Shown in pieces: positions 4,729 through 46,721 of a stretch of DNA of 54,013 nt. The notes under the pieces were generated by a model that made no database searches, was not told the origin of the DNA, and saw nothing but the letters and a program-made list of their open reading frames with translations. A program made the translations under genes and the position numbers. Positions within the stretch are counted from its first letter, which is position 1. Each line of letters begins with the position of its first letter. The DNA is from an uncultured Candidatus Saccharibacteria bacterium (GTDB taxonomy: Bacteria > Patescibacteriota > Saccharimonadia > Saccharimonadales > UBA10212), in assembly GCA_964514575.1 (NCBI GenBank), contig CAZETJ010000001.1, positions 1-54,013 on the forward strand, given 5' to 3'.

Positions 4729-6144
4729 CTAAGCAGTATTGGTGATACTGGGATTTGAAGGAATAACTACGCCCTGCGTAGGTGTTAGAGGCGGCGGGAA
4801 CGGCGGCGCGGTGGCAGCAACATCCACAGACGGACTGTTGGGCGCCCCTGTTGGCGGCGAAACAGCGGGATCGAATGGTGCAGCTGCTAGGGCGCTTTCT
4901 ACTGCTGAGCGGGCTTTATCAACGCTTGGCGGAGCCACGGTTTTACCTTGGTTAGACGTCTCTTCGGTTTTTTTGGCCTGGCCAGGAGCCGTTGGCGAAC
5001 CGCCTGAGCTTAACGGATCAACTGAGACACCGTTAAAAGGATCATCCCATTCCGGCTTGGCGTTGGCCGTGAAAGGCACGCCATCAGTGCTAGATTGCTC
5101 ATCCGGGTTCAAGAACGTATGTGGGCTTACCTCTGTTCCGGCGGGCTTGGCGACGCTGCCGGGCGAAGGCACAATTAGATTTCCCTGCTCATCAATCAAT
5201 ATCTCGCCGTTGGCTACCACCGGAGGGGTGGCTGGTTGCTTAGATGGCGCGATTGGCGTTGCCTGAACTTTAGGTTGCGGCTTAGAGGCAGCTGGCGGCT
5301 GTTCGTGGGCTACGTTTAGGGTTCCATTATCTGGTATGGCTGCTGACGCAGCCATTTTAGACCCTGCTTTAGGCTTAACCGTCACGCTAGCGACGGGGGG
5401 CTCCAGTTTACTAACGATTAGCTGTTGGTTCGCGCCGGCGGCCATTAGCTGGGCGCTCATGGTCATCACCTTGGGGCTAGTTTTGGGGTTCGAGAAACGG
5501 GCGGTTTCAGCCACTATACCGGTCAAGAAAGCCGTAGCTGTTTGGTTATCAATCAGCCCCGTCCCAAAGGATTCGCTGATACTCACCAACATCTCGCACA
5601 GGCTGCTGGCTGCCGGGTCTTGCCAGTTGATTTGGCCGAGCTGAGGCGCCGCGCCCTGCCCCGCGTTCAGAGAAATAACCGTGGCATCATGCAAAATCTT
5701 TCCGTGAGCCGTGATGGCAGCGTCAATTTCCGTTTGCTTCTTGATACCAAGCGCCATAACAACTTCCACGTTAAAATCGCCTTGGCCAAAGACCAGATCG
5801 CTTTGGCTTAAGGATGTTTTGTAAGGTGTTATAAAGATCCTGACGAACTGATCTTCGACTTTGTAACGTAACTTGTCGGCCTTTTCTTTATCCAGGCTGA
5901 TAATAAAATCTCGCAGGCTGTCAGTATTGGTCTCGATGGTTTTTTCGGGTTGCAAAAATTCCAAAGTCGATGGTACGTGTCCTGAAAATACCGCTGTGGC
6001 GTGTTTTTCCATGCGGTTCAAAAGCAGGGTCAAACCAATACAAGCCGCCAGTTGGTCGACCGTTGGGTTGGTACTGACGGTCACCAATATGTTATTGGCT
6101 TGGCGGATGCGTTCTGCTATCTGTTGTTTGGCTGCCGCGTCCAT
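4729..6144 (-). CDS. DHH-family (NrnA-like) fold protein with degenerate catalytic motifs and Pro-rich tail
   Basis: N-terminal ~245 aa follow the DHH layout (I..A.NILV, INWQD..ASSLCEM, ATA.LTGIV.ET..F) but the DxD and DHH motifs are absent; the C-terminal half is low complexity. Confidence 0.75.
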   Translation of the reverse strand: MDAAAKQQIAERIRQANNILVTVSTNPTVDQLAACIGLTLLLNRMEKHATAVFSGHVPSTLEFLQPEKTIETNTDSLRDFIISLDKEKADKLRYKVEDQFVRIFITPYKTSLSQSDLVFGQGDFNVEVVMALGIKKQTEIDAAITAHGKILHDATVISLNAGQGAAPQLGQINWQDPAASSLCEMLVSISESFGTGLIDNQTATAFLTGIVAETARFSNPKTSPKVMTMSAQLMAAGANQQLIVSKLEPPVASVTVKPKAGSKMAASAAIPDNGTLNVAHEQPPAASKPQPKVQATPIAPSKQPATPPVVANGEILIDEQGNLIVPSPGSVAKPAGTEVSPHTFLNPDEQSSTDGVPFTANAKPEWDDPFNGVSVDPLSSGGSPTAPGQAKKTEETSNQGKTVAPPSVDKARSAVESALAAAPFDPAVSPPTGAPNSPSVDVAATAPPFPPPLTPTQGVVIPSNPSITNTA

Positions 6145-16186: not shown

Positions 16187-16223
16187 TACTCAAATTATAC
16201 CTTTAGTTTGCTAAGCTATAAAC

Positions 16224-16802
16224 ATGGCCAAAGTCAAATTAATAGCTATCGCTGGTATGCCCGGTTCTGGTAAGGGGACATTAACTGACTATTTGCAGGA
16301 CGAACGCCAGTTCCCTGTCGTCCATTTCGGTAACATGGTTTATGAAGAGGTCCAGCGCCTAGGATTAAATAACGTCAAGGATGAGAAATTTGTCCGTGAA
16401 GATATGCGCAAGCAAGATGGTAAAGAGGTCTTAGCCAAACGAGCGGCAAATAAAGCAGACGAGTTATTGAAAAGCGGAGCGCCGATAATTGTTCTGGATG
16501 GTTTATATAGCTGGAGCGAGTATAAGTACTTGGCGAATAAGTACGGCGACCAGCTTTTACTACTTGCCGTGACCGCTCCCCGGCATCTTCGTTATGAGCG
16601 GGCTCTTGGTCGTGATGAAGCTCACCGAAAATACACCTCTGCCGAGCAAATTCGCGAGCGTGACTATGCTGAAATCGAAAACCTGGAAAAGGGCGGCCCA
16701 ATTGCCTTTGCTGACTATACGATCGTTAATGACGGCACGCCCGAACAACTGCTCGAAAAGTTGGATTCGATTCTAAAAAACTTGAACCTATTTTTCAATT
16801 AG
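16224..16802 (+). CDS. P-loop kinase, archaeal UPF0200/dephospho-CoA-kinase-like
   Basis: GMPGSGKG Walker A, LDGLYS..E, RD..EIE.LEKG.PIA.AD..I.N. Confidence 0.75.
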   Translation: MAKVKLIAIAGMPGSGKGTLTDYLQDERQFPVVHFGNMVYEEVQRLGLNNVKDEKFVREDMRKQDGKEVLAKRAANKADELLKSGAPIIVLDGLYSWSEYKYLANKYGDQLLLLAVTAPRHLRYERALGRDEAHRKYTSAEQIRERDYAEIENLEKGGPIAFADYTIVNDGTPEQLLEKLDSILKNLNLFFN

Positions 16803-18167
16803 GCTTTCCCTTTTTTTGACCGCGTCGCTTCTGGCATTATCGCCGCTAACTCCCAGCCGCCTATAGACGGTACCGACGCGTCCCTTAAGTTGTATAAGGG
16901 TCATGCCCACCAGCTGAGCAATTTGCCTGTTATTCAAGCCTGCAGCTAAATGTTCAAGTATTTCCTCATCCGTTTGGCTGAGTTTGTAGTTATTACCTTT
17001 GCTATCCACAAAATTACCAATTTTGCTATCGGCCTCTTCCCTGACTGGGTCTCCAGAGTCCGTCTGAAAGGCTTCGACATCCTTGGTCTTATCCCGCAAC
17101 TCGCCCAATCGTGCCAGTCGTTTTAGAATCTCTTTCTCCTGATCACTGATGTAGTCACGTGAATGTCCTAAGAGTTTAGCGATTTCGTCGTAGGAAAGCG
17201 GCTGTTTGTTTCCGAGTCCGTAATGAAGTACCAATATTTCGCGCTCCATGGGCGTTAGACAGTCCAGCCCTTCCTTGAGAGCCGAGATACGACCAAGTGC
17301 GTAGACCGTTTCTTCCTCGGCCTCGTTGGAGCTGACAGCTATTAGTTCACCTAGCTCTGTTTCTTCATCGGGACCAACCAGCTTGTTAAGCGAAGTGGCG
17401 ACTATTGGAGCGTCCAAACTGTCCTTAACCACCCCTGGTTCATAGTTAGTATTTTCAGCTACTTCATTGAGTGTTGGGTAGCGCTGTAACTCCTGGGTCA
17501 ACATCGGTATGGAGCCTCTGACGTTTTGGCGCTGTTGGACTATATCTACCGGAAGGTGGATGGTGCGCGACTCCATGACTAGCGAACGGTCAATCGCTTG
17601 GTGGATCCACCAAGCGGCATAAGTCGAGAATCTAAAACCGCGGCCTGGATCGAATTTTTCGACGGCCCGAATTAGACCAAGCGCTCCACTTTGAATCAAA
17701 TCTTCGAAGTCTAGGCCCTTCCTCAAGTACCCTCCAGCAATTTTCACAACCAGCCGCATATTAGAGTTAATCATTTCCTCTCGGGCGGCCTCGTCTCCCA
17801 GCCTGATGCGCTTGGCCAGTTCAATCTGCCGGCTGGGAGATGGCACTTTAAACCGGCCGAAGGAGTTTTTCATCAACTTGACGGTGTCCATTTGCGCGTA
17901 TTCGTTACTGCTGGGTCGCGACTCGGCTTCGTCTTGCTCTTGAAGTTCCTCGTCAGTCGGTTCTTCGACTCCGTCTAACAGATCGCCGAGTTCGACTTCG
18001 CCAAACTCCTCAATACCGGGTTCGTCGAATTCCGGTAAGTCTAGCGATTCATCAACTAGCTCCAGATGCCGATGATGAGTTAGGGCTCGCAGAGCCACAA
18101 CATGCCCCGGAATAGAATAAGTGCCCACCTCGCTTCTGGGTTCTAATCTCTCCGCGGGAACTGCCAT
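16788..18167 (-). CDS. Alternative sigma-70 factor (RpoD/RpoS-like regions 1.2-4) fused to a C-terminal LuxR-type HTH
   Basis: [38 protein letters not shown]; region 4 LT..EREIL.LHYGL; then LS..DEEIL.HLAAGLNNRQIA.LVG......K.RV..VY.RLGV. Confidence 0.88.
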   Translation of the reverse strand: MAVPAERLEPRSEVGTYSIPGHVVALRALTHHRHLELVDESLDLPEFDEPGIEEFGEVELGDLLDGVEEPTDEELQEQDEAESRPSSNEYAQMDTVKLMKNSFGRFKVPSPSRQIELAKRIRLGDEAAREEMINSNMRLVVKIAGGYLRKGLDFEDLIQSGALGLIRAVEKFDPGRGFRFSTYAAWWIHQAIDRSLVMESRTIHLPVDIVQQRQNVRGSIPMLTQELQRYPTLNEVAENTNYEPGVVKDSLDAPIVATSLNKLVGPDEETELGELIAVSSNEAEEETVYALGRISALKEGLDCLTPMEREILVLHYGLGNKQPLSYDEIAKLLGHSRDYISDQEKEILKRLARLGELRDKTKDVEAFQTDSGDPVREEADSKIGNFVDSKGNNYKLSQTDEEILEHLAAGLNNRQIAQLVGMTLIQLKGRVGTVYRRLGVSGDNARSDAVKKRESLIEK

Positions 18168-18202
18168 TTAACTAGATTGTACCTAAAGTGTTAGCCAAAA
18201 AA

Positions 18203-19381
18203 CTATTGTAAATATTCATGCAAACGGCGGGTTTCTTTGTTCTTTCGCAGTTTAGCCAGCGCTTTGGCTTCAATTTGACGGATGCGCTCTCTCGTAACCG
18301 AGAATTCCTGGCCGACTTCTTCTAGCGTATGGCTTTTGCCGTCTTCCAGGCCGAAACGCAGTTTGAGAATCTTCTGCTCTCGCTCGGTCAGGCTAGATAG
18401 AATCTGGCGCACCTGCTCTTTGAGCAGCTGTTCTGAAGCTGATTCACTAGGAGTCTTCTGGTCTTCGTCTTCGATAAAATCGCCAAGTACAGAATCTTCC
18501 TCGTCATCACGCACGGAGGCGTCCAAGCTGGAAATGTCCTGCTTAATTTTCATGATGTGCTCGACTTTGTCGACGTCCATTTCCATAGCCGTGGCAATTT
18601 CTTCGTTGGTCGGTTCGCGATTGAGCTCTTGGGTCAGCCGACGTTGGGTGCGCAGCAGTTTATTGATAGTCTCCACCATGTGCACCGGGATACGGATAGT
18701 GCGAGCCTGGTCGGCAATCGCCCTGGTGATAGCTTGGCGGATCCACCAGGTGGCGTATGTACTAAACTTAAAACCGCGGTCCGGGTCGAACTTTTCGACC
18801 GCGCGCAGTAGCCCTGTGTTGCCCTCTTGAATCAGGTCCAAAAGATCCAGTCCGCGGCCAACGTAACGCTTAGCGATGCTGACCACCAGGCGCATATTAG
18901 CTTCGGCCATAGCGTCTTTGGCGCGTTTATCGCCGCGTTTAACTTTCTTGGCCAACGCCAACTCTTCGGGCGGCGTAAGCAAAGGAATCTTGCCGATTTC
19001 ACGCAGATAAAGCCTGACGCTGTCGTCGGCGATATCATCAATGTAAGATGTATCTTCTTTTATTAGTTCTTCGGGTTCGTCCCCGGCGACCCATTCGTGC
19101 TCGCCGTGCAGCTCGGCGGGGCTAGGCTCGGCGGCGGCAATCAATTCGACTTCGTTCTCAGCCATTTCGGCGTAAAGCCGTTCTAGCACGTCAATATTAG
19201 CCGGTGTATCCGGAATCAACTCAAAGACATCACGTTGCTCAAGCTTGCCATCTTTCTTGCCTTGCTCAATTAGCTGTGTGATTTCGCGATCATAAGTTTT
19301 TTTGGTTCGCTTTGGGCCGACGGCCTTTTTGGGCGTTTTAGGCTTTGGCGCTACGGTAGTAGTTTTCTTTTTTTGAGGCAT
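18203..19381 (-). CDS. rpoD: RNA polymerase primary sigma factor
   Basis: [51 protein letters not shown]; ATG 19381 preceded by GGAGG. Confidence 0.99.
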
Positions 19382-19405
19382 ATTATTCCCTCCCAATCTG
19401 TTAAA

Positions 19406-21151
19406 TTAGCTTGCTTGTTTGATCAAGAGATTAAGTTTATCAGCTTTTTTAATAAGCTTCTGCAAATCTTCGCCCTTAGCATTTTCCATCTGCTCGGCGA
19501 TTTTTTCCTTTTCAATTTTGACGAAGCGGTCAATTAGCCGCCGTTTGAGGTTGATGGCCTGTTCTTCCAGATCGGCAAAGGGCGCATCAGCGTAAAGCTC
19601 CTCAAACTGTAACGTTATAATTTTAACATAATCAGCGATGGGGCGCAAAGCAGCGGCAGTCTTCTTATCTGGTACAAATTTGGGATTATCTTTCAAAAAT
19701 TCTAACAAATCTCTAGCTGAACCATCGCTAAAATACTCAGGTTTTGTTTCTTTGAGTATCCAGCGCAGTTTCGGCTGAACCAGCAGCATGGCCAAAAAAT
19801 GATCCTGCAAGCGCTGGTGCTCGACAGCCACTATATCTATTTGCTCACCTCGAATTTTAGGCTTTTTAAAAAGCGGCTGGGGTTCGCTAGCCCCGCTAAA
19901 TTTGGATTTTATGGCTTCCAGGCTGGTGTCAGTCAGTTCAGCGATCCTTTTTAAGTGGTGCTCTCGTTCTACCGGATCACGCAGGCGGCGAATTGTATTG
20001 AGCAAAGCATCCGTGAAAGTTCGTTTGCCCTCGGCAGTACTAAGGTCTAGCTCATCGCGGTAGCGATCAATTAGCCAGTCGGGCGCGTTCAGCGCGTTAT
20101 CAATAGCCTTTTGCCAGGCCGGCAGGTCTTTTTGGATCAATTCATCAGGATCTTTTGCGCCAACGATCGTAATAATGCGCAGATTGACTTCGGCATTCTG
20201 GGCCATCGGAATAATCCGCTCGGTAGCGGCGACTCCTGCGCGATCAGCATCAAAGCTTAGGCGGATATCGCCAGTAAAACGCTTGAGGGCTCGCAGGTGC
20301 TGCTCGGTCATAGCTGTACCGGCACTGGCCACGACATTTTTAACGCCGGCCTGATGGCTGGCAATGACGTCCATGTTCCCTTCCACTACTACGACGATGG
20401 ATGATTTGCGAATCGCCTCTTTAGCCAGATGCAAGCCAAAAACTTGTCGGCTTTTATCATAAACAATGGTTGCCGGCGTATTGATGTATTTAGGGGAGTT
20501 CGGCTCGTCGGCCAGTAGCCGCGCCGTAAAGCCAATGATCTTACCCGAGGGGTCGGCCAGCGGGATCATAATCCGGCCGCGGAACATATCCCGCGCTCCG
20601 CCTGACCGGACGGTGACCAGGCCGGCACGCTTCATTTCGTCTGTAGTAAAGCCTTTTTTGGTCAGAAAATCCGTTAAGGCGGTTCCATTGCTTGGGGAGA
20701 AGCCCAGCCGCCATTCCAACACTGTATTTCTGGAGAACTGGCGCTTTTTCAGCAAATAATCTAGCGCTGGCTTGTTAACGATCAGCTGTCTTTGGTAAAA
20801 TCTGGTGGCCAGTTCCAGGACGTCTAAAGTTCGAGCTTTGAGTTTACTAGCGCCGGATGGCCGTGTTTGATAATCTTCCAGCTCAACACCGGCTTTGCGA
20901 GCCAATAGTTCCAGCGCGCCTTTAAAATCGACGCCTTCGACCTCCATGACAAAGCTAAAAATATCGCCGCCCTTGCCGCTAGAAAAGTCGTGCCAAATCT
21001 GTTTTTCCGGGCTGACGATAAAGCTCGCTGTCCGCTCATTAGTCCACGGGCTCAGACCCTTGAAGTTGCGGCCGGTACGCTTGAGCTGAACGTATTCGCC
21101 CAAAACGTCCTCAATATTAAGCCGGCTTCTAATCTCCGCAACAGCGTCCAT
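19406..21151 (-). CDS. dnaG: DNA primase
   Basis: ERTASF.V, D.FRGRIMIP, PKYINTP, VEGNMDV, FDAD.AG, KDPDE; zinc-binding Cys residues replaced as in many CPR primases (SPWT, HDFSS). Confidence 0.98.
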   Translation of the reverse strand: MDAVAEIRSRLNIEDVLGEYVQLKRTGRNFKGLSPWTNERTASFIVSPEKQIWHDFSSGKGGDIFSFVMEVEGVDFKGALELLARKAGVELEDYQTRPSGASKLKARTLDVLELATRFYQRQLIVNKPALDYLLKKRQFSRNTVLEWRLGFSPSNGTALTDFLTKKGFTTDEMKRAGLVTVRSGGARDMFRGRIMIPLADPSGKIIGFTARLLADEPNSPKYINTPATIVYDKSRQVFGLHLAKEAIRKSSIVVVVEGNMDVIASHQAGVKNVVASAGTAMTEQHLRALKRFTGDIRLSFDADRAGVAATERIIPMAQNAEVNLRIITIVGAKDPDELIQKDLPAWQKAIDNALNAPDWLIDRYRDELDLSTAEGKRTFTDALLNTIRRLRDPVEREHHLKRIAELTDTSLEAIKSKFSGASEPQPLFKKPKIRGEQIDIVAVEHQRLQDHFLAMLLVQPKLRWILKETKPEYFSDGSARDLLEFLKDNPKFVPDKKTAAALRPIADYVKIITLQFEELYADAPFADLEEQAINLKRRLIDRFVKIEKEKIAEQMENAKGEDLQKLIKKADKLNLLIKQAS

Positions 21152-25894: not shown

Positions 25895-26566
25895 TTAGAA
25901 ACTCCTCAGAGCGCTTACACCGCGGTGCAGCGACCAGTAAAGGACCGAAAGAACCACAAAAAATAGACCAGTCAGCGAAAAAGCGTGCGGGTGGCCCAGT
26001 GGATCTATCAGCCGGTCTGAGACATTGATAATGATGCCGCTGGGGTTAGAAATTACGTCCCAGCTGTTCCAGCGCAACACTCGCCCCAAATAAATCGCAT
26101 AGCTAGAAACCAAGAGTACTGCTTCGACCGCCAAGAACGACATCTTGGGCGTAAAACGTTTACTAAACTCCCGGTGAACTAAATAAAGGCTGGTGTAGCC
26201 TAAAACAAATCCTGTAAATGTCACGCACATCATCAGAACAATGTCGTAAAGTTCGCTGATCTCCCCGGTTGGATAAACATGTATAAAATCGGTCAGAAGA
26301 TACCAAGTGTTTGGTAGGAAAAATAGCCAAAGCGCCGATAAAATTATATTCGACCAGCTTTTCCAGTGGCGGGTTTTTAGTTGTTCCGTCAATAACCAGC
26401 CAAAATATAATCCAGCCCAGGCCAAAACCAAGTTGCCTGGGACGAAAAAGTAGCGCAGTGTACTGGTGTTTATTGCCCGATAGACCAAAAGAACTAGGCA
26501 AAGTAGAGTGAGTAACCCCACGGCCTCAAAATAGTGCTTACTGGCTTTAGTCTTCGGCCACCACAT
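25895..26566 (-). CDS. DUF1361-family membrane protein
   Basis: WL.FLPNT.YL.TDFIH, IYLGR.LRWNSWD. Confidence 0.88.
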   Translation of the reverse strand: MWWPKTKASKHYFEAVGLLTLLCLVLLVYRAINTSTLRYFFVPGNLVLAWAGLYFGWLLTEQLKTRHWKSWSNIILSALWLFFLPNTWYLLTDFIHVYPTGEISELYDIVLMMCVTFTGFVLGYTSLYLVHREFSKRFTPKMSFLAVEAVLLVSSYAIYLGRVLRWNSWDVISNPSGIIINVSDRLIDPLGHPHAFSLTGLFFVVLSVLYWSLHRGVSALRSF

Positions 26567-29811: not shown

Positions 29812-30834
29812 CTAGCCGAGTTCTTTTTTGAATTTCTCGACAATGTCGACCGGCGACGGATTGATACCGTTCAGCAGTGCCAGATAAATACTGACAAAAT
29901 CCCCGTATGCGATCACCCAAACCAGTTGCTCCAACAGAGTACCGCCCTGCACCGCTACTACATATGGTGCTGGACGTCGGCCCGACAACAGTTTCTCGCC
30001 AACCTCGAAACGTTTCTGAACGCGCGGATGTTCAAAGTTGGAGCGCAGTTCGATAATTGCGTAAGGCTTATGGATCGGATGGCTGGTCCAACCGCTTAGT
30101 TCGTTATGGTCAAACTCTGGCAGCTCGTTCCACCAAGCTACGTTCTTGGCGTTTTCGTTGAAATTAATCTTCCATTTATAAGCCGCTGGCGCCATCAATG
30201 GGCCGCCATAAACAGCAACCGATTTACCGGCCAACTCTTCAGCTAAACGTTTGGCCGGGTTCTCTTTAGTAGGACCTGTTGGCAACCAAGCTTCGACCGA
30301 TTTTTTCAAAAAATCGGTCGTCTTAACCAGTTCTTCAACTTTCCCATCTGTTAAACCGGCCTTTTCTAAAATTGTAGCCAACGCTTTTAGGCTGGCTAAG
30401 ACGGCAAAGCGCGGCTGTTTGGTGTCGGGCAACGCCAATGCCGGATAGTTTTTGGCTTTGGCAATCTCGCTCAATTTACCGCCTTGGCTGATAATCACGA
30501 CCGTGGCCTTTTTTGCCTCGGCTTCGGCTAACGTTGACAGTATTTCTTCGGTATTTCCGGAGTAACTGGAAGCAATGAATAAAGTTTTTTCCGAAACATA
30601 TTTCGGAATATCGTAGCGGCGGCAGATTTCGAAAGGTACGTTGATACCTGGCCAACTGCGGGCCACTAAGGCCGCCAAAGCCGAGCCGCCCATACCGGCG
30701 TAAACGACATTAGCAAAACCTGAACCGAGTTCAGGTTTATCAAATTGGTGCCCCAACTGCTCTGCCTGGTGCTCAGCGATTCCCAAAGCGTCCTGGCCAT
30801 CGCGGTGATGGATATATTTAAGATCGTCTAACAC
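29812..30834 (-). CDS. Bifunctional phosphoglucose/phosphomannose isomerase (archaeal-type SIS)
   Basis: GMGGS, SSYSGNTEE, QPR, KW.INFNENAK, PE.DHNE. Confidence 0.92.
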   Translation of the reverse strand: MLDDLKYIHHRDGQDALGIAEHQAEQLGHQFDKPELGSGFANVVYAGMGGSALAALVARSWPGINVPFEICRRYDIPKYVSEKTLFIASSYSGNTEEILSTLAEAEAKKATVVIISQGGKLSEIAKAKNYPALALPDTKQPRFAVLASLKALATILEKAGLTDGKVEELVKTTDFLKKSVEAWLPTGPTKENPAKRLAEELAGKSVAVYGGPLMAPAAYKWKINFNENAKNVAWWNELPEFDHNELSGWTSHPIHKPYAIIELRSNFEHPRVQKRFEVGEKLLSGRRPAPYVVAVQGGTLLEQLVWVIAYGDFVSIYLALLNGINPSPVDIVEKFKKELG

Positions 30835-34214: not shown

Positions 34215-35012
34215 ATGTCCAAAAAGGTCCTGATGTGTCGGCCGACTTACTTCGATATCGAATACGAAATTAATCCTTGGATGCACCAGGACGACCAACC
34301 GGCTCAAGACTCAGTTGCTAACCAATGGCAAAAACTTTATAAGATTTACACCGAAAAGTTAGACTGGCAAGTTGAACTCATCGATCCGATCAAAGGCCTG
34401 CCGGATATGGTCTTTGCCACCGATTGCTGCCTGATGATTAAGGGTCAGGCCCTGCTCTCTTCCTTTCGGTATCCAGAGCGCCAGCCCGAAACCGGCTGGT
34501 TCGAAAAATGGTTCCATGCCCACGGTTATACAGAACTAAAGCAAGCTAAAAATTTCTTTGAGGGCGGCGGTGATACGTTACTGGCTGGTAAAAAAATTCT
34601 AGCCGGCCACGGTTTCCGCTCCAGCCCGGAAGCCTCTCAGGAACTCGAGGATTTTTTCAGACTGGAAGTCGTACCTCTAAGAATCGTCGATCCGCGGTTT
34701 TATCATCTGGATACTTCTCTATCCGTTCTGGCCGACGATACTATCGCTTTTTATCCACCAGCTTTGGATGCGGTCAGCCAGCAACGGTTACGAAACGCGA
34801 TTCCCAACATCATTGAAGCCACCGAGGAAGAAGCCATTGGCTTCGGCTTAAATGCCGTCAGCGACGGCCACACCATCATATGCTCCGATGCCTCGCAGAG
34901 CTTGCTTGATAAATACCGGCAAGCCGGCTTTGAAGTTATCGGTACGCCAATTTTAGAATTTCGAAAATCCGGCGGCGGGATCAAATGCCTGACGCTGGAT
35001 CTAGACCGCTGA
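34215..35012 (+). CDS. Amidinotransferase-family protein (DDAH/arginine deiminase fold)
   Basis: YEINPWM, PDMVF, FEGGGD, YHLDT, GGIKCL; start ATG 34215. Confidence 0.92.
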   Translation: MSKKVLMCRPTYFDIEYEINPWMHQDDQPAQDSVANQWQKLYKIYTEKLDWQVELIDPIKGLPDMVFATDCCLMIKGQALLSSFRYPERQPETGWFEKWFHAHGYTELKQAKNFFEGGGDTLLAGKKILAGHGFRSSPEASQELEDFFRLEVVPLRIVDPRFYHLDTSLSVLADDTIAFYPPALDAVSQQRLRNAIPNIIEATEEEAIGFGLNAVSDGHTIICSDASQSLLDKYRQAGFEVIGTPILEFRKSGGGIKCLTLDLDR

Positions 35013-36299
35013 TTTTAGAATTTGTTCAGCTACTTCCGATTCGTTCCAGGGGTGCTCGCCATCAACCCGCTCGATAGTTTTCTCGTGACCCTTGCCCAGC
35101 AGCAGTACTGTGTCGCCGGCTTTGGCTCGTCCAAAAGCGAACTTGATGGCTTCAGTCCGGTCGTGTATCAAAAACAAATTATTGTCCCGAAGCTTGCCAG
35201 CTTTTTCGGCGCCGCTGGCGATCTGTTCCATGATCGCGTGGCCGTCCTCATGACGATCATCCTCCTCCGTTATAACCAGCTCGTCGCAATATTTTCCAGC
35301 CAACTCGCCCTGCACCGCTCGTTTAGTTTTGTCACGTTCGCCGGCGGAGCCAAAGACTGTAATCAACTTGCCTTCGCTCACCGGCTTTAGATCGGCGAAT
35401 AATTTTTCGAAGCTGTCCGGAGTGTGCGCAAAGTCGACAATGACGTCAAATTCCTGGCCGGCGTTGATTCGGTTCATCCGGCCTTCGACATTTTGCAGCG
35501 CGGCAATGCCCTGCTCAATGTCGGCCGGCTTGACGCCTAAAGCCAATCCGACGCCCGCTGCAGCCAGCGCATTATAAACGTTAAAACTGCCCGGCAAGTT
35601 GGTTTTGATATGCAATTTTTGGTCGCCAAACCGAGCCTCGAACTCACTGCCAGCTGTTGTACTCTTCACATCACTAGCTTTAAGCTCGCCCTTCATCAAT
35701 CCATAAGTAATGGCCCGCCTGATATCATGCTGAAACAGCTCAGCTGATGGGTCGTCGGCGTTGATGACCCCTGTTCTGAGACCGTTGCGGTGACGATTTG
35801 TCAGTCTAAATAATTTGCGCTTGGCAGTCAGGTAGCGCTCGAATGTGCCGTGATAATCAAGGTGCTCGTGGGTCACGTTAGTCATGACCGCTAGGCTAAA
35901 TGGCACGCCCCAAACTCGGTTCTGGCCGAGTGCGTGCGAGGTCGTTTCTAGCACCAGCCAATCGATTTTCTGACGGCGCATAAAACGCAGTCGTTTCATT
36001 AGCTGCGGCACTGAGACGTTAGTCATGTGCTGGATCTGCGGCCGGATTTCTTCGCCCGCGCCGTAAGCCACGGTCGTCATTAGGCCAGCCTTGTAGCCGG
36101 CTTGGCTAAGAACTTTGTGAATCAAAAAGCTAGTCGTCGTCTTGCCGTTGGTGCCAGTCACGCCGATAACCTTCATCCCCCGAGCCGGAAAACCGTACAA
36201 TAAATTCAAAATTACCGCTTCGGCCAGATGTCCCCAGGGCTCGATTAGTCGAAATAGTCTGGTCGGTATAAACAGCTTGACCAGACGCCGGAAATTCAT
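35001..36299 (-). CDS. murE: UDP-N-acetylmuramoyl-dipeptide amino-acid ligase, CPR-type lacking the N-terminal domain
   Basis: GVTGTNGKTTT, LETTSH, NVTHEHLDYH, VDFAHTPD, GERDKTKR..G, LLGKGHE. Confidence 0.9.
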   Translation of the reverse strand: MNFRRLVKLFIPTRLFRLIEPWGHLAEAVILNLLYGFPARGMKVIGVTGTNGKTTTSFLIHKVLSQAGYKAGLMTTVAYGAGEEIRPQIQHMTNVSVPQLMKRLRFMRRQKIDWLVLETTSHALGQNRVWGVPFSLAVMTNVTHEHLDYHGTFERYLTAKRKLFRLTNRHRNGLRTGVINADDPSAELFQHDIRRAITYGLMKGELKASDVKSTTAGSEFEARFGDQKLHIKTNLPGSFNVYNALAAAGVGLALGVKPADIEQGIAALQNVEGRMNRINAGQEFDVIVDFAHTPDSFEKLFADLKPVSEGKLITVFGSAGERDKTKRAVQGELAGKYCDELVITEEDDRHEDGHAIMEQIASGAEKAGKLRDNNLFLIHDRTEAIKFAFGRAKAGDTVLLLGKGHEKTIERVDGEHPWNESEVAEQILKSAV

Positions 36300-36302
36300 A
36301 GC

Positions 36303-36316
36303 TACAGTATACTGTA
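36303..36316. promoter_or_regulatory. Perfect 14-bp palindrome giving a TATACT -10 on both strands
   Basis: TACAGTATACTGTA within the 23-nt gap between divergent murE and tsaD. Confidence 0.65.
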
Positions 36317-36322
36317 CAACTG

Positions 36323-37372
36323 ATGAGGATTTTAGGGATCGAGACCTCCTGCGACGAGACCGCGGCGGCTGTTGTTGAAGACGGCCAGCGCTTGCTGAGC
36401 AATGTCATAGCCAGCAGCGTTGATCTCCACGCGGCTTACGGCGGCGTGGTGCCGGAAATTGCCGCCCGCTCCCACCTGGAGAGTATTCTACCGGTGATAA
36501 ACGAAGCCTTAAGCCAAGCCAAAACTAACTGGGACGACATTGATGCCATCGCCGTGACTCAAGGGCCAGGCCTTATCGGCTCTCTGCTGATCGGTGTGCT
36601 GACCGCCAGAACCTTGGCGATCACGAAAAATAAGCCGCTCTACGCCGTTAACCACGTTAAAGCGCATGTCTACGCCACCTTTATAACGAAAGGGATGGCT
36701 GATTACCACTTCCCTGCTCATCCACCTGATTTTCCTCTGTTAGCCTTGATTGTTTCTGGCGGCCATAGCTCTTTAGTCCTATTCGAAAGCCACAGTCGGT
36801 ATAAATTGCTGGGGCAGACGGCTGATGACGCTGTCGGCGAAGCTTTTGATAAGGTAGCTAAAATGCTTGGTCTACCCTACCCCGGCGGACCAGCGATCGC
36901 GCAGGCTGCCAAAAAAGGCGACTCTACCTCGGTTAAATTGCCGATAGCCCAGATGAGTGGTTATGATTTTAGCTTTTCCGGCTTAAAAACAGCCGTTTTA
37001 AGGGCTGCGCAGGCCCTGGCCGGAAAGGACTACACATTTGCCTCTAGCGGCCTGCCAGAGGCGCTGACAAGCGCTCAGAAAGCTGACTTAGCGGCCAGCT
37101 TTCAAGCTACAGCTTTGAAAACTTTAGTAGACCGCTTAGAAAAGGCCTGCCGACAATATCAACCAGCCAGCGTGGCGATCGTTGGCGGTGTAGCCGCCAA
37201 TAGTGAGCTAAGGCGGCTGGCCGAAGCTGCCCTGCCCTCTGTTATCTACCCCGATGTAAAGCTATGTACAGATAACGCCGCGATGATCGCGGCAGCTGCC
37301 TTCTTCGGTAGATCAACAAATACACCCGTTGATCCCTATGGCCTATCTGTTGAGCCTGGCCTATCTTTGTAG
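36323..37372 (+). CDS. tsaD: tRNA N6-adenosine threonylcarbamoyltransferase
   Basis: LGIETSCDET, GGVVPE.A.R.H, GPGLIGSL, SGGH, DDAVGEAFDK, DNAAMI. Confidence 0.98.
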   Translation: MRILGIETSCDETAAAVVEDGQRLLSNVIASSVDLHAAYGGVVPEIAARSHLESILPVINEALSQAKTNWDDIDAIAVTQGPGLIGSLLIGVLTARTLAITKNKPLYAVNHVKAHVYATFITKGMADYHFPAHPPDFPLLALIVSGGHSSLVLFESHSRYKLLGQTADDAVGEAFDKVAKMLGLPYPGGPAIAQAAKKGDSTSVKLPIAQMSGYDFSFSGLKTAVLRAAQALAGKDYTFASSGLPEALTSAQKADLAASFQATALKTLVDRLEKACRQYQPASVAIVGGVAANSELRRLAEAALPSVIYPDVKLCTDNAAMIAAAAFFGRSTNTPVDPYGLSVEPGLSL

Positions 37373-37534: not shown

Positions 37535-40105
37535 ATGAAATTGCCCAGCGTTTATAATCCGGCTGAGTACGAATCCGACATTTATTCCCTCTGGGAACAG
37601 GGCAGGGCATTCGAGCCAAAAAACAGAGGTAATCCGGGTGTTTTTAGTATAGTTGCGCCCCCGCCAAATGCTAATGCCGACCTGCACATTGGCTACGCAC
37701 TTGTTGTCGCCATAGAAGATACTCTCGTCCGCTACCAACGCATGACCGGGAAGGAAACCCTGTTTGTTCCTGGCGCCGACCACGCCGGTTTCGAAACTTG
37801 GGTCGTTTACGAAAAGAAGCTCAACGAGAAGGGTAAAAGCCGCTTTGACTACTCCAGGGAAGAGCTTTACAGGCAGGTTTGGAGCTTCGTACAAGACAAT
37901 AAACACAATTTTGAAAGCCAGCTGAGGAAGCTCGGCGCTAGCTATGATTGGAGTCGCTTCACTTTCACCCTAGACCCCAAAGTTGTTAGCCGGGCCTATA
38001 AAACTTTTCAAAAAATGTGGCAGGAAGGTCTAATTTACAGGGGTAAGCGCATTGTTAATTACTGCACCTTCCATGGCACCAGCTTTTCAGACATTGAAGT
38101 CATTCACGAGGAAGAAAAGACCAAGCTTTGGCATATCGCCTACCCCTTAGCCGACGGGGAAGGGGAGGTCGTCATCGCGACCACCCGGCCAGAGACCAAG
38201 CTAGGCCAGTCGGCGCTGATGGTCAACCCCAAAGACAAACGCTATAAACACCTTATCGGGCAGAAGGTTCTGCAGCCTTTAGTCCCAAATAAACCGATTG
38301 AAATTATTGCCGATGATTACGTGGATATGGACTTTGGAACGGGGGTGGTAACGGTAACGCCTGGGCACGACCAGAACGATTTTGAAGTGGCCCAGCGGCA
38401 CAATCTGCCGATCATCGAGTTAATCACCACTGAAGGCAAAATCAGCGATAAAGTGCCCAAGGAATTCCGCAGATTGACGATCGCCGATGCCCGCGAGGCA
38501 GTTGTGAAGAAATTGCAAGAACTCGGCTATTTGCGAGAGATAAAAGACTATGTTCACTCAGTTGGAAAGTGTTACAAGTGCGGCACGATTATCGAACCGC
38601 TAGTTCGCGAACAATGGTTCGTCAAGATGAAGCCGCTGGCACAAGCGGCAGCCAAGGAGCTCAAGTCCGGGCAAATTGCCTTTTATCCGGCCAGCAAGCT
38701 CAAACAGACTCTGAGCTATCTGGAGGAAGTCAGAGATTGGAATATCAGCCGCCAGATTCCCTGGGGCATCCCAATCCCAGCTTTTCAGAACGTTAAACGT
38801 TCGTCCGATTGGATATTTGATGCCCGGGTTGACCAGGAATTTATAGAAAAAAATGGCAAGCGCTACCGGCGCGATCCAGACGTTTTTGACACCTGGTTTT
38901 CATCCGGTCAGTGGCCTTATGTAACGCTTGATTACCCTGGTTCAGACTTTAAAAAATTCTATCCGCTGAGCCTGATGGAAACTGGCGGCGAGATCCTTTA
39001 CCAATGGGTGGCCAGGATGATCATGCTTGGGCTTTATACCACCGGTAAAGTTCCGTTCAAAGACGTTTATATCCACGGCTACGTACTGGCTGAGGGCGGC
39101 GCCAAGATGAGCAAGAGCTTGGGCAACGCGATCAATCCGCAGACGATTATTTCGGAGTACGGTTCAGACGCGCTGAGGATGGGGCTGTTATCCGGCCGCC
39201 GGCCAGGGGTCAACCAAGGGTTTCATACTCCAAAGGTCAAGGGCGGCCGCAACTTCGCCAACAAGCTCTGGAATGTCGCACGGTTCGTGGAAGCGACTGG
39301 AACGAAAAGCGAACAAATTAAGTTGGCGGGGCCGGCCGATCAGTGGATTGCCAGCCGGCTCAACCAAGCGGGTAGGGAAATTGCCGAATCCCTGGAAGCT
39401 TACCGGCTTAGTGAAGCCTACGAAGCGCTTTACGGATTTGTATGGCGGGATTTTGCCGACTGGTACGTTGAAGCCAGTAAAACAGAGGTAAACCCAGACT
39501 TTCTAAATAAACTTCTGGCCGAGACCTTGAAGCTGGCGCATCCTTTCGCACCGTTCGTTACTGAAGCCATTTGGCAAACTATGAACCCGGTGGGCAATAG
39601 TCTGCTGGCAACCCAGGAATGGCCGGAACCGCTAGTCTTTGATAAAAAGCAGGCGGTGATTTTCGAAGACTTAATGGCGGTAGCCAAGGAGACACGCCAC
39701 ATTATTTCTGCTCTCAAGGTTCGCCGGCCAGTGCTCTACTTCTCTGACTCCAAAACCGTTGCTGCAAACGGCGATTTACTGGTTCACCTTGGCCATTTGG
39801 GCGAGCTAAAAAGTGCGCCAGCCAGCGGCGGAAAAGGCCTGCGTCTGGCCACGCCAAAAGGCCGCTACTGGCTGGATGTCGAGGAGTCAAAGCTGGCAAC
39901 TTATGTCGGACAATTGAAGCTCCAGGAAGCACAAATAACAGATGTGGTTAAGTTACTAAAGAGCCGATTGGCTAATAAAAGCTATGCTGCTAAAGCGCCG
40001 AAGGCTTTAGTGGAACAAAGCCGCTCGCAGCTAGTCGAGCAGACCGAAAAGTTGGTGGCTGTTCACGCCGAAATCAAAGCCTTTGCCAGTTACGCCGAGG
40101 GCTAG
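37535..40105 (+). CDS. valS: Valine--tRNA ligase
   Basis: PPPN, DHAG..T, TTRPET, WNISRQI.WG, DTWFSS, KMSKS, C-terminal coiled coil. Confidence 0.98.
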   Translation: MKLPSVYNPAEYESDIYSLWEQGRAFEPKNRGNPGVFSIVAPPPNANADLHIGYALVVAIEDTLVRYQRMTGKETLFVPGADHAGFETWVVYEKKLNEKGKSRFDYSREELYRQVWSFVQDNKHNFESQLRKLGASYDWSRFTFTLDPKVVSRAYKTFQKMWQEGLIYRGKRIVNYCTFHGTSFSDIEVIHEEEKTKLWHIAYPLADGEGEVVIATTRPETKLGQSALMVNPKDKRYKHLIGQKVLQPLVPNKPIEIIADDYVDMDFGTGVVTVTPGHDQNDFEVAQRHNLPIIELITTEGKISDKVPKEFRRLTIADAREAVVKKLQELGYLREIKDYVHSVGKCYKCGTIIEPLVREQWFVKMKPLAQAAAKELKSGQIAFYPASKLKQTLSYLEEVRDWNISRQIPWGIPIPAFQNVKRSSDWIFDARVDQEFIEKNGKRYRRDPDVFDTWFSSGQWPYVTLDYPGSDFKKFYPLSLMETGGEILYQWVARMIMLGLYTTGKVPFKDVYIHGYVLAEGGAKMSKSLGNAINPQTIISEYGSDALRMGLLSGRRPGVNQGFHTPKVKGGRNFANKLWNVARFVEATGTKSEQIKLAGPADQWIASRLNQAGREIAESLEAYRLSEAYEALYGFVWRDFADWYVEASKTEVNPDFLNKLLAETLKLAHPFAPFVTEAIWQTMNPVGNSLLATQEWPEPLVFDKKQAVIFEDLMAVAKETRHIISALKVRRPVLYFSDSKTVAANGDLLVHLGHLGELKSAPASGGKGLRLATPKGRYWLDVEESKLATYVGQLKLQEAQITDVVKLLKSRLANKSYAAKAPKALVEQSRSQLVEQTEKLVAVHAEIKAFASYAEG

Positions 40106-46307: not shown

Positions 46308-46721
46308 CTACGAACTGGAAACTTTTTGAAGCGTGAAGTGGACCAGAATCTGAGCCATCGCCACAATAATTAAACCGATGATGGCGTACAGGATAGTATT
46401 TTTAGCACTAGTAACACTGGTGTCATTGCCACCGCTGGTAACGTAGCGCAGGCCGCCGACGATGATCATGACCACAGCAATAATGCCGACGACAGCCGAA
46501 AGCAAATTGACCACTTTATGGACAACGTTGTTAATCTTGCCAGTGGCACTAGTATCGTTGCACGATGCCGTGGGATTGTCCGTAAATTCCAAATCAGCAC
46601 CACTGCATAGACCACTATTGATTTGTTGTTGGCCTACCTGGGCCAGGGCTAAGGGCGCTCCCAGGTTTATAACAAGCGTTGAGGCGACAGCTGCGGCAAA
46701 AAAAATTAGGCGCCTGACCAT
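46308..46721 (-). CDS. T4SS pilin (TrbC/VirB2-like) 1
   Basis: Signal peptide, Cys loop, GGLRYVTSGGN..V..AKNTILYAIIGL. Confidence 0.88.
   Translation of the reverse strand: MVRRLIFFAAAVASTLVINLGAPLALAQVGQQQINSGLCSGADLEFTDNPTASCNDTSATGKINNVVHKVVNLLSAVVGIIAVVMIIVGGLRYVTSGGNDTSVTSAKNTILYAIIGLIIVAMAQILVHFTLQKVSSS

Follow-up and report, generated by a model that had tools for sequence, protein, structure and literature searches.

In the dnaG-rpoD-polA region of an uncultured Candidatus Saccharibacteria bacterium, the primary sigma factor gene is followed by a second sigma gene of the RpoD family, the fast-evolving product of which continues beyond region 4 into a LuxR-type helix-turn-helix (HTH). 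This gene, hereafter the accessory sigma, is carried by a DNA stretch of 54,013 nucleotides (the window; contig CAZETJ010000001.1, assembly GCA_964514575.1). The fusion of a sigma core with a LuxR-type domain is real, conserved and rare. From the sequence and from structural models, we propose, with a probability of about 0.5, that the accessory sigma is an alternative sigma which binds core RNA polymerase (RNAP), has an altered specificity at −12 and would contact DNA at or upstream of −35 through its tethered HTH.

Gene and domain organization

The first-pass annotation of the window had placed a second RpoD-like sigma 35 nt downstream of rpoD. The open reading frame (ORF) coordinates agree with this (gap at 18168-18202), as do the Pfam matches and a BLASTP alignment with the adjoining RpoD (37% identity over amino acids (aa) 94-358). 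The gene, its parts and its upstream neighbours are as follows, with the evidence in brackets.

16788..18167, minus strand: accessory sigma, complete ORF of 459 aa plus stop (ORF list, translation, Pfam)
17889..18167, minus strand: acidic N-terminal region, aa 1-93, net charge −21, isoelectric point (pI) 4.1 (composition, AlphaFold2 (AF2))
17787..17858, minus strand: region 1.2, aa 104-127, weak match of 20.5 bits (Pfam)
17580..17774, minus strand: region 2, aa 132-196 (Pfam, alignment)
17310..17561, minus strand: region 3 including region 3.0, aa 203-286 (Pfam, alignment)
17115..17267, minus strand: region 4, aa 301-351 (Pfam, alignment)
16983..17114, minus strand: acidic linker, aa 352-395 (AF2, charge)
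16791..16982, minus strand: predicted LuxR/FixJ/NarL-type four-helix HTH, aa 396-459 (Pfam, tail profile, fold, pI)
18176..18181, minus strand: TACAAT, −10-like hexamer, 8 nt 5' of the ATG (sequence)
18203..19396, minus strand: primary sigma gene rpoD (TIGR02393)
19406..21151, minus strand: dnaG primase gene, which heads the conserved backbone (ORF list, synteny)

The AF2 model gives helices at low confidence over aa 1-93, and the Pfam scan of the protein returned no region 1.1 match in this N-terminal region.

Sigma core and promoter-reading residues

The Pfam models of regions 2, 3 and 4 all match the accessory sigma (Sigma70_r2, 72 bits; r3, 34.9 bits for a cutoff of 25.3; r4, 37.9 bits for a cutoff of 24.1). 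Region 1.2 reaches 20.5 bits for a cutoff of 22 over profile positions 11-34 only, and the alignment with RpoD starts at aa 94. The protein lies under the cutoff of every RpoD, RpoS and SigB model of NCBIfam, the generic model of the sigma-70 superfamily being the only one that it passes. It scores 188 bits against the RpoD model TIGR02393 (cutoff 354), with the remaining RpoD models far under their cutoffs, and 198 and 193 bits against the RpoS models NF004207 (cutoff 394) and TIGR02394 (cutoff 379). The neighbouring RpoD obtains 366 bits with TIGR02393 and is 84% identical to the RpoD of other Saccharimonadia. The best PDB matches of the accessory sigma, by sequence and by fold, are SigA, RpoS and SigB. 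By these sequence criteria, it is classed as a non-primary, group-2-like sigma-70 factor of the RpoD family. Identity with MzaA, the sigma of the anti-phage MZA system, was rejected: model NF041931 failed (161.7 vs. 800 bits, with the sigma core alone aligned) and the neighbours are housekeeping genes.

Group 2 sigmas (RpoS, mycobacterial SigB, Streptomyces HrdA-D, cyanobacterial SigB-E) consist of regions 1.2, 2, 3 and 4; the accessory sigma shares regions 2, 3 and 4, and its region 1.2 match is weak. Like them, it exists next to a primary RpoD, and species can dispense with it. Group 2 sigmas nevertheless keep near-canonical −10/−35 residues and end at region 4, whereas the accessory sigma has seven reading residues changed and ~108 extra residues including the LuxR HTH.

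Residues were placed by alignment to Escherichia coli sigma70 chains (register +247). In E. coli numbering, the changes are R436H (H189) and T440D (D193) in region 2.4, H455D (D208) and E458Q (Q211) in region 3.0, and E585D (D338), R586Y (Y339), R588S (S341) and Q589D (D342) in region 4.2. The canonical reading residues R436, T440, H455, E458, R586, R588 and Q589 are thus H, D, D, Q, Y, S and D in the accessory sigma. Over regions 2.4-3.0 its letters are FSTYAAWWIHQAIDR, the RpoD counterpart including IPVHMVET, and in region 4.2 it has SRDYISDQE where RpoD has TRERIRQIE. The three replacements first read from the sequence (WWIRQAITR to WWIHQAIDR, PVHMVET to PVDIVQQ and TRERIRQIE to SRDYISDQE) are all exact in the alignment. 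The same annotation had considered the core-binding regions to be kept, and the Sigma70_r2 score and the retained invariant residues are in line with this. Y183, W186 and W187 correspond to E. coli Y430, W433 and W434, and R337 to R584; E. coli Q437 and R441 are also kept, and the invariant region 2 columns F180, Y183, W187, Q190 and R194 are all present. Genetics and structures of sigma70/sigmaA assign the −12 base pair, the extended −10 TG and the −35 hexamer to the changed positions, and the melting of the −10 element to the aromatic residues that are retained here.

C-terminal LuxR-type domain

A linker of ~40 aa followed by a complete NarL/LuxR HTH, as first annotated after region 4, is borne out by the tail profile, the fold and the GerE scores of the relatives. 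AF2 and Foldseek were used to check that the C-terminus folds as an HTH, and a four-helix HTH was found. In the full-length AF2 model (mean predicted local distance difference test score (pLDDT) of 76), regions 2-4 and the HTH are confident. The last helix of sigma-4 runs on to about aa 370, into the linker, of which aa 361-380 have a pLDDT of ~48-50; a short helix, a beta-hairpin (aa 383-397) and four helices (aa 398-458, pLDDT 75-86) then follow. Because of this low pLDDT, the linker is not modelled as rigidly packed, and it is likely flexible. A model of the tail by itself has the same fold, with a pLDDT of 82-88 over the HTH.

The nearest PDB folds of the tail model are the DNA-binding domains of LiaR, ComA, GerE, VraR, DosR and NarL (root-mean-square deviation of 1.1-1.4 Å over ~56 residues, target template modelling score of 0.72-0.82, 25-30% identity). 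A profile of five orthologous tails retrieved the NarL/LiaR/VraR/DosR/GerE domains from the PDB sequences at E values from 2e-9 to 9e-6, and reached the sigma-4 of extracytoplasmic function (ECF) sigmas only at 1.6e-5. The homologous tails of two relatives, L010 and L018, exceed the Pfam GerE threshold (40.4 and 38 bits, respectively). The HTH has a pI of ~10 on a protein of pI 4.9 with an acidic linker. The sole invariant residue of the five tails is a lysine of the recognition helix (QLK, at the position of TVK in NarL). The hidden Markov model (HMM) built on region 4 of the paralog family gives 1.6 bits on the tail of the accessory sigma, vs. 16.9 bits for L017 and 13.3 bits for L003, two paralogs described below, which rules out a recent copy of its own region 4. 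By profile and by model, the tail is therefore assigned to the LuxR/NarL-type HTHs rather than to recent region 4 duplicates.

Relatives and the slot downstream of rpoD

Eighty Saccharimonadia species loci were collected with DnaG as a neutral anchor (DnaG identity of 53-70%). In all of them rpoD follows dnaG, and 0, 1 or 2 sigma paralogs then precede the kinase gene and/or polA, giving a backbone dnaG-rpoD-[0-2 sigma paralogs]-[kinase]-polA. Paralogs are mostly found in loci with a DnaG nearest to that of the window, and few occur in distant loci.

Besides that of the window, four further Saccharimonadia species have, in the same slot, a sigma followed by linker, hairpin and LuxR HTH: L015, L004 (468 aa), L018 (424 aa) and L010 (523 aa). 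They are only 30-34% identical to the accessory sigma. In L004 and L018, the tailed sigma is the second paralog and comes after an untailed one. The product of L015, hereafter P0118 (MEX2006716.1, 463 aa, Ca. Saccharimonadales LejiaD_47_37), is annotated only as "sigma-70 family RNA polymerase sigma factor". Its alignment with the accessory sigma extends through the tail, its locus has the order dnaG-rpoD-sigma-kinase-polA, and P0118 is identical in two independent assemblies. Six-frame translations of the 80 loci, searched with the tail HMM, contained no stand-alone tail ORF or split gene.

The best relatives of the accessory sigma among 5.8e9 proteins are sigma cores of 43% identity in which the tail is absent. 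The protein itself is absent from a 15-billion-protein collection, a metagenome scan for its close relatives gave 33% identity at best, and among the GTDB species representatives the identity with the DnaG of the window does not exceed 70%, so that the source genome seems to be missing from these public sets. In an exhaustive HMMER search of 1.84e9 representatives with a two-sequence tail profile, P0118 was the only sigma fusion; this profile was too weak to recover the tails of L004, L010 and L018 and does not fix the frequency of the architecture. The word-index search, a tool insensitive here, found no match with the tail alone, and with a profile of region 4 plus tail it gave region 4 matches only and missed P0118 as well.

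The other 58 matches of the two-sequence profile are proteins of tandem GerE/HTH repeats without a sigma core. These proteins (P0138-P0195) contain 2-12 repeats, as in P0138 (740 aa, ~12 repeats) and P0139 (four GerE domains), and in P0177 the repeats are fused to a phage integrase.

Other C-terminal additions occur in the paralog family. The L017 paralog (589 aa, L017:9234-11003) has two extra region-4-like repeats at its C-terminus and the L003 paralog (414 aa, L003:10988-12232) has one. Given that these repeats occupy the same C-terminal position, HTHs have been added to the C-terminus in this family on more than one occasion. The L082 paralog (489 aa, L082:13846-15315) carries a tail of ~120 aa of no assigned class. 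At L017:7564-8632, rpoD appears to be split into two ORFs (233 and 127 aa; frameshift, pseudogene or assembly error), the 589-aa paralog being 600 nt downstream. Three loci (L004, L056 and L059) come from contigs titled Candidatus Babeliales, Pristimantibacillus and Dormiibacterota, despite a Saccharimonadia dnaG-rpoD synteny and a DnaG identity of 55-69%; they are probably mis-binned or mislabelled contigs of metagenome-assembled genomes.

Origin and diversification of the paralogs

Among these genomes, RpoD shows 81-86% identity, with every reading motif invariant. The paralogs are 30-40% identical to one another, and their differences fall precisely at the specificity positions. Among ~25 paralogs, the invariant framework is kept and the variation is concentrated at these positions, a pattern that we read from the alignments as specificity diversification and not decay.

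Nearly all paralogs resemble sigmas of Actinomycetota-type contigs with ~70% GC (Gaiellaceae and others) more than they resemble any Saccharimonadia RpoD. The L022 paralog has 66% identity with P0045 vs. 48% with RpoD, and the accessory sigma has 43% identity with an Actinomycetota-type sigma vs. 36% with the Saccharimonadia RpoD; in this similarity ordering, the Actinomycetota comparison set consists of the best matches to the accessory sigma. The paralog genes carry a native GC content. A tandem duplicate of the adjacent rpoD is unlikely, the paralogs being nearer to Actinomycetota-type sigmas than to any Saccharimonadia RpoD; had rpoD simply been duplicated and then evolved faster, the reverse order of similarity would be expected. 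From these sequence comparisons, an old acquisition of a group-2-like sigma appears more likely than an rpoD duplication, and the similarities suggest an ancient transfer from Actinomycetota. This phylum is the host phylum of Saccharibacteria.

The neighbour-joining tree is star-like, with paralog branches very long relative to RpoD. It places the accessory sigma with the LuxR-tailed L004 (66% bootstrap) and L018, and L015 and L010 with an untailed paralog. A single fusion event followed by later losses would fit these data, and the tree does not resolve this point. Since P0118 joins the tail to the canonical WWIRQA, PVH and KERVRQIE, the tail is older than the rewiring. A non-canonical region 4.2 is found in four of the five LuxR-tailed sigmas and in 5 of the 16 untailed paralogs. 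A link of the tail to degeneration of region 4.2 was not retained, since the difference is a trend only (P = 0.12, Fisher test).

Candidate promoter element and probable leaderless genes

The 35-nt spacer between rpoD and the accessory sigma reads, on the minus strand, TAG-TTTTTTGGCTAACACTTTAGGTACAATCTAGTTAA-ATG. TACAAT stands 8 nt before the ATG, and the spacer contains neither a −35 match nor a Shine-Dalgarno sequence; for want of a −35 match, a generic promoter scan called no promoter before the accessory sigma. The same element is found 5' of other tailed paralogs (TACAAT-N8 in L018, TATAAT-N8 in L004 and TATACT-N9 in L015). The upstream stretches of the accessory sigma and of L018 are nearly identical, while the two proteins share ~31% identity.

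In the window, 19 of the 49 genes (long ORFs), including polA, have a TAnnnT box 5-10 nt 5' of the start codon. These boxes are often strong (TATAAT or TATACT) and frequently follow GG or TGG, and the genes have no Shine-Dalgarno sequence. Examples of TAnnnT-ATG from the window scan are at 16187-16223 (polA/kinase), 4729-6144, 25895-26566, 29812-30834, 37535-40105 and 46308-46721. Judging from this pattern, a large share of the mRNAs of the source genome appear to be leaderless or nearly so.

The accessory sigma had been annotated with a promoter of its own, TACAAT-N8-ATG. The element is indeed present, and its arrangement recurs before three other tailed paralogs and before 19 of the 49 genes, and its role as a promoter is plausible only. 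It is plausibly an RpoD-dependent promoter of the leaderless type, given its recurrence before the tailed paralogs and its agreement with the genome-wide leaderless pattern. Alternatively, read-through from rpoD may extend into the accessory sigma.

Elsewhere in the window, the 23-nt spacer (36300-36322) between two divergent genes (35001-36299, minus strand; 36323-37372, plus strand) contains a perfect 14-nt palindrome, TACAGTATACTGTA. Each strand carries TATACT, and both start codons lie at leaderless distance from it; by its sequence, the palindrome looks like a shared bidirectional −10.

Proposed function and alternatives

In the usual view, sigma factors read promoters through regions 2, 3 and 4 only, and added specificity normally comes from separate activators. 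In the mechanism that we propose, the RpoD holoenzyme would transcribe the accessory sigma gene from its own leaderless-type promoter. The accessory sigma would bind core RNAP like other sigmas and melt a −10-like element, with an altered −12 specificity and the extended −10 left unread. Its tethered LuxR HTH would add a sequence-specific duplex contact at or upstream of −35, a predicted site close to where class I/II activators, the AT-hook of WhiB7 and T4 MotA act, and a third element would then enter into the choice of promoter. In the window copy, this contact would largely replace −35 recognition, sigma-4 having lost R586, R588 and Q589. The arrangement may give RNAP a third DNA-reading head.

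Several observations weigh against this function. The GerE match of the accessory sigma itself (PF00196, aa 396-440) stays at 21.6 bits for a cutoff of 23.5. Pairwise identity among the five tails is just 14-30%, and the HTH has a pI of ~10 in four of them, that of L010 not being basic (pI 6.3). LuxR-type HTHs usually bind DNA as dimers; a single tethered HTH may therefore bind weakly. The paralogs are patchy, missing in most of the 80 species including close relatives, and this absence makes them dispensable. The accessory sigma has no relative above ~43% identity in the databases searched. Finally, P0118 has a canonical sigma-4 together with the tail. The replacement of −35 recognition is thus at best lineage-specific and not the general role of the tail, for which the first-pass annotation had suggested either a built-in activator or a tethered −35 replacement. 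Nor do the rewiring and the tail form one package, since P0118 carries the tail with the canonical WWIRQA, PVH and KERVRQIE.

A stronger version, put forward tentatively and rather doubtful, is that the LuxR-type HTH took over upstream recognition from a disabled sigma-4, in a sigma family probably acquired from Actinomycetota and repeatedly gaining HTHs. If true, the accessory sigma would correspond, within one polypeptide, to class II activation or sigma appropriation, and would read a three-module code or a −10 plus LuxR-box code.

The tail could instead act in cis as a regulatory module, folding on sigma-2/sigma-4 or competing with DNA to restrain or tune the sigma. The best-documented precedent for a fused C-terminal domain is of this kind (SnoaL_2 of sigma-J, PMC5766207; ECF classification, PMC7826278). 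The fused C-terminal domains of ECF41 and ECF42 act in this way, and such a module would fit a genome in which no anti-sigma factor is obvious; the accessory sigma has rpoD, polA and a P-loop kinase gene next to it, none of which is anti-sigma-like. The poor conservation of the tail sequence is also compatible with it. However, the tail has a DNA-binding fold, a basic surface and a conserved recognition-helix lysine, the linker is of low confidence in AF2, and the regulatory extensions known so far belong to ECF sigmas and are not HTHs. A regulatory module in cis is judged unlikely.

We consider it quite unlikely that the window copy is a degenerating or neutral paralog, or a decoy that sequesters RNAP, in which core is bound, promoters are no longer read productively and the HTH is a relic. 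No other member diverges as much at the reading positions, the paralog branches greatly exceed those of RpoD in length, close relatives are often without paralogs, and a close ortholog is absent from all databases searched. Yet the 459-codon ORF is intact, every invariant core-binding and melting residue is retained, and AF2 is confident for regions 2-4 and the HTH. In addition, the GC content is native, the promoter element of the other tailed paralogs is retained, and the substitutions are grouped at specificity positions instead of being scattered.

A role of the LuxR domain in protein-protein contact, by dimerisation through the fourth helix or by pairing with a free LuxR/NarL regulator that would recruit the holoenzyme, is very improbable. 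GerE/NarL-type domains dimerise via their C-terminal helix, and the best structural matches of the tail are dimeric DNA-binding domains. Nevertheless, genomes of the candidate phyla radiation (CPR) have few regulators, and no LuxR-type partner was found in the window or in the six-frame translations of the 80 loci with the tail HMM.

An assembly or frameshift artefact joining a sigma gene to a separate small LuxR gene is hardly credible: although the window is known from a single assembly, the sigma and LuxR frame is continuous in five species, P0118 is identical in two independent assemblies, a stand-alone tail ORF occurs in none of the loci and the linker prolongs the last sigma-4 helix in the AF2 model. 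The possibility of such an artefact, raised with the first annotation, is thus excluded by the four other species and by the two assemblies of P0118.

Comparison with known systems

Outside the RpoD family, a domain placed after region 4 alters promoter use or activity in ECF41/sigma-J (SnoaL_2), ECF42 (TPR) and OrbS (Cys-rich) (PMC5766207, PMC7826278, PMC9023288). These extended ECF sigmas belong to group 4, without regions 1.2 and 3, and what they carry is a sensor or regulatory fold and not a DNA-binding HTH. An ECF41/42-like identity was rejected for the accessory sigma, which has region 3, a weak region 1.2 match and an HTH as its extension.

The LuxR/FixJ/NarL activators (GerE with sigma-K, NarL, LuxR/TraR, RcsB) have the same four-helix HTH as the tail. 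They bind at or just upstream of −35 and cooperate with sigma region 4 or with the C-terminal domain of the alpha subunit. These activators are separate, usually dimeric proteins with a receiver or ligand domain, whereas the tail is a single HTH tethered to sigma-4 without any regulatory domain. In the T4 AsiA/MotA and mycobacterial WhiB7 (AT-hook) systems, the upstream promoter contact is provided or taken over by a DNA-binding module held at the C-terminus of sigma, and the WhiB7 promoter complex (7kin) is among the structural matches of the accessory sigma. These modules are separate proteins of unrelated folds; the likeness is conceptual and implies no homology to the tail. The closest systems are P0118 and the paralogs of L004, L010 and L018, with the same locus and the same sigma-linker-hairpin-LuxR HTH architecture, although P0118 keeps the canonical reading residues unlike the accessory sigma.

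Fused accessory domains are known for ECF sigmas and have been catalogued for cyanobacterial sigmas, and LuxR/GerE is not in the list (PMC7826278; PMC11119718). A four-region sigma with a C-terminal LuxR HTH was found in none of the family models, the PDB or the searchable literature. The first-pass annotation, which knew of no described group 1 or 2 sigma with an extra LuxR HTH, is consistent with these family libraries, structures and publications. The architecture of the accessory sigma is apparently rare and undescribed; an InterPro architecture query is needed before absolute novelty is claimed.

A four-region sigma with a built-in LuxR head would be a compact route to a separate regulon in a tiny, regulator-poor genome. 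A natural fusion of sigma and activator would interest work on transcription mechanisms and, for the design of orthogonal sigmas, synthetic biology. The variable slot after rpoD, with its 0-2 rapidly diversifying Actinomycetota-like sigmas, is also relevant to gene regulation in CPR episymbionts and to gene transfer from their likely hosts. Should the tail turn out to be inert or autoinhibitory, what is left is an unusual sigma with an accessory domain.

Neighbouring kinase gene

The P-loop kinase gene (AAA_18-like; 16224-16802, plus strand) is convergent with the accessory sigma (minus strand), with a 15-nt overlap of the 3' ends. The orientation of the kinase gene varies between loci. In L001, kinase and sigma genes share a strand and overlap by 4 nt; in the window and many other loci the kinase gene is on the opposite strand.

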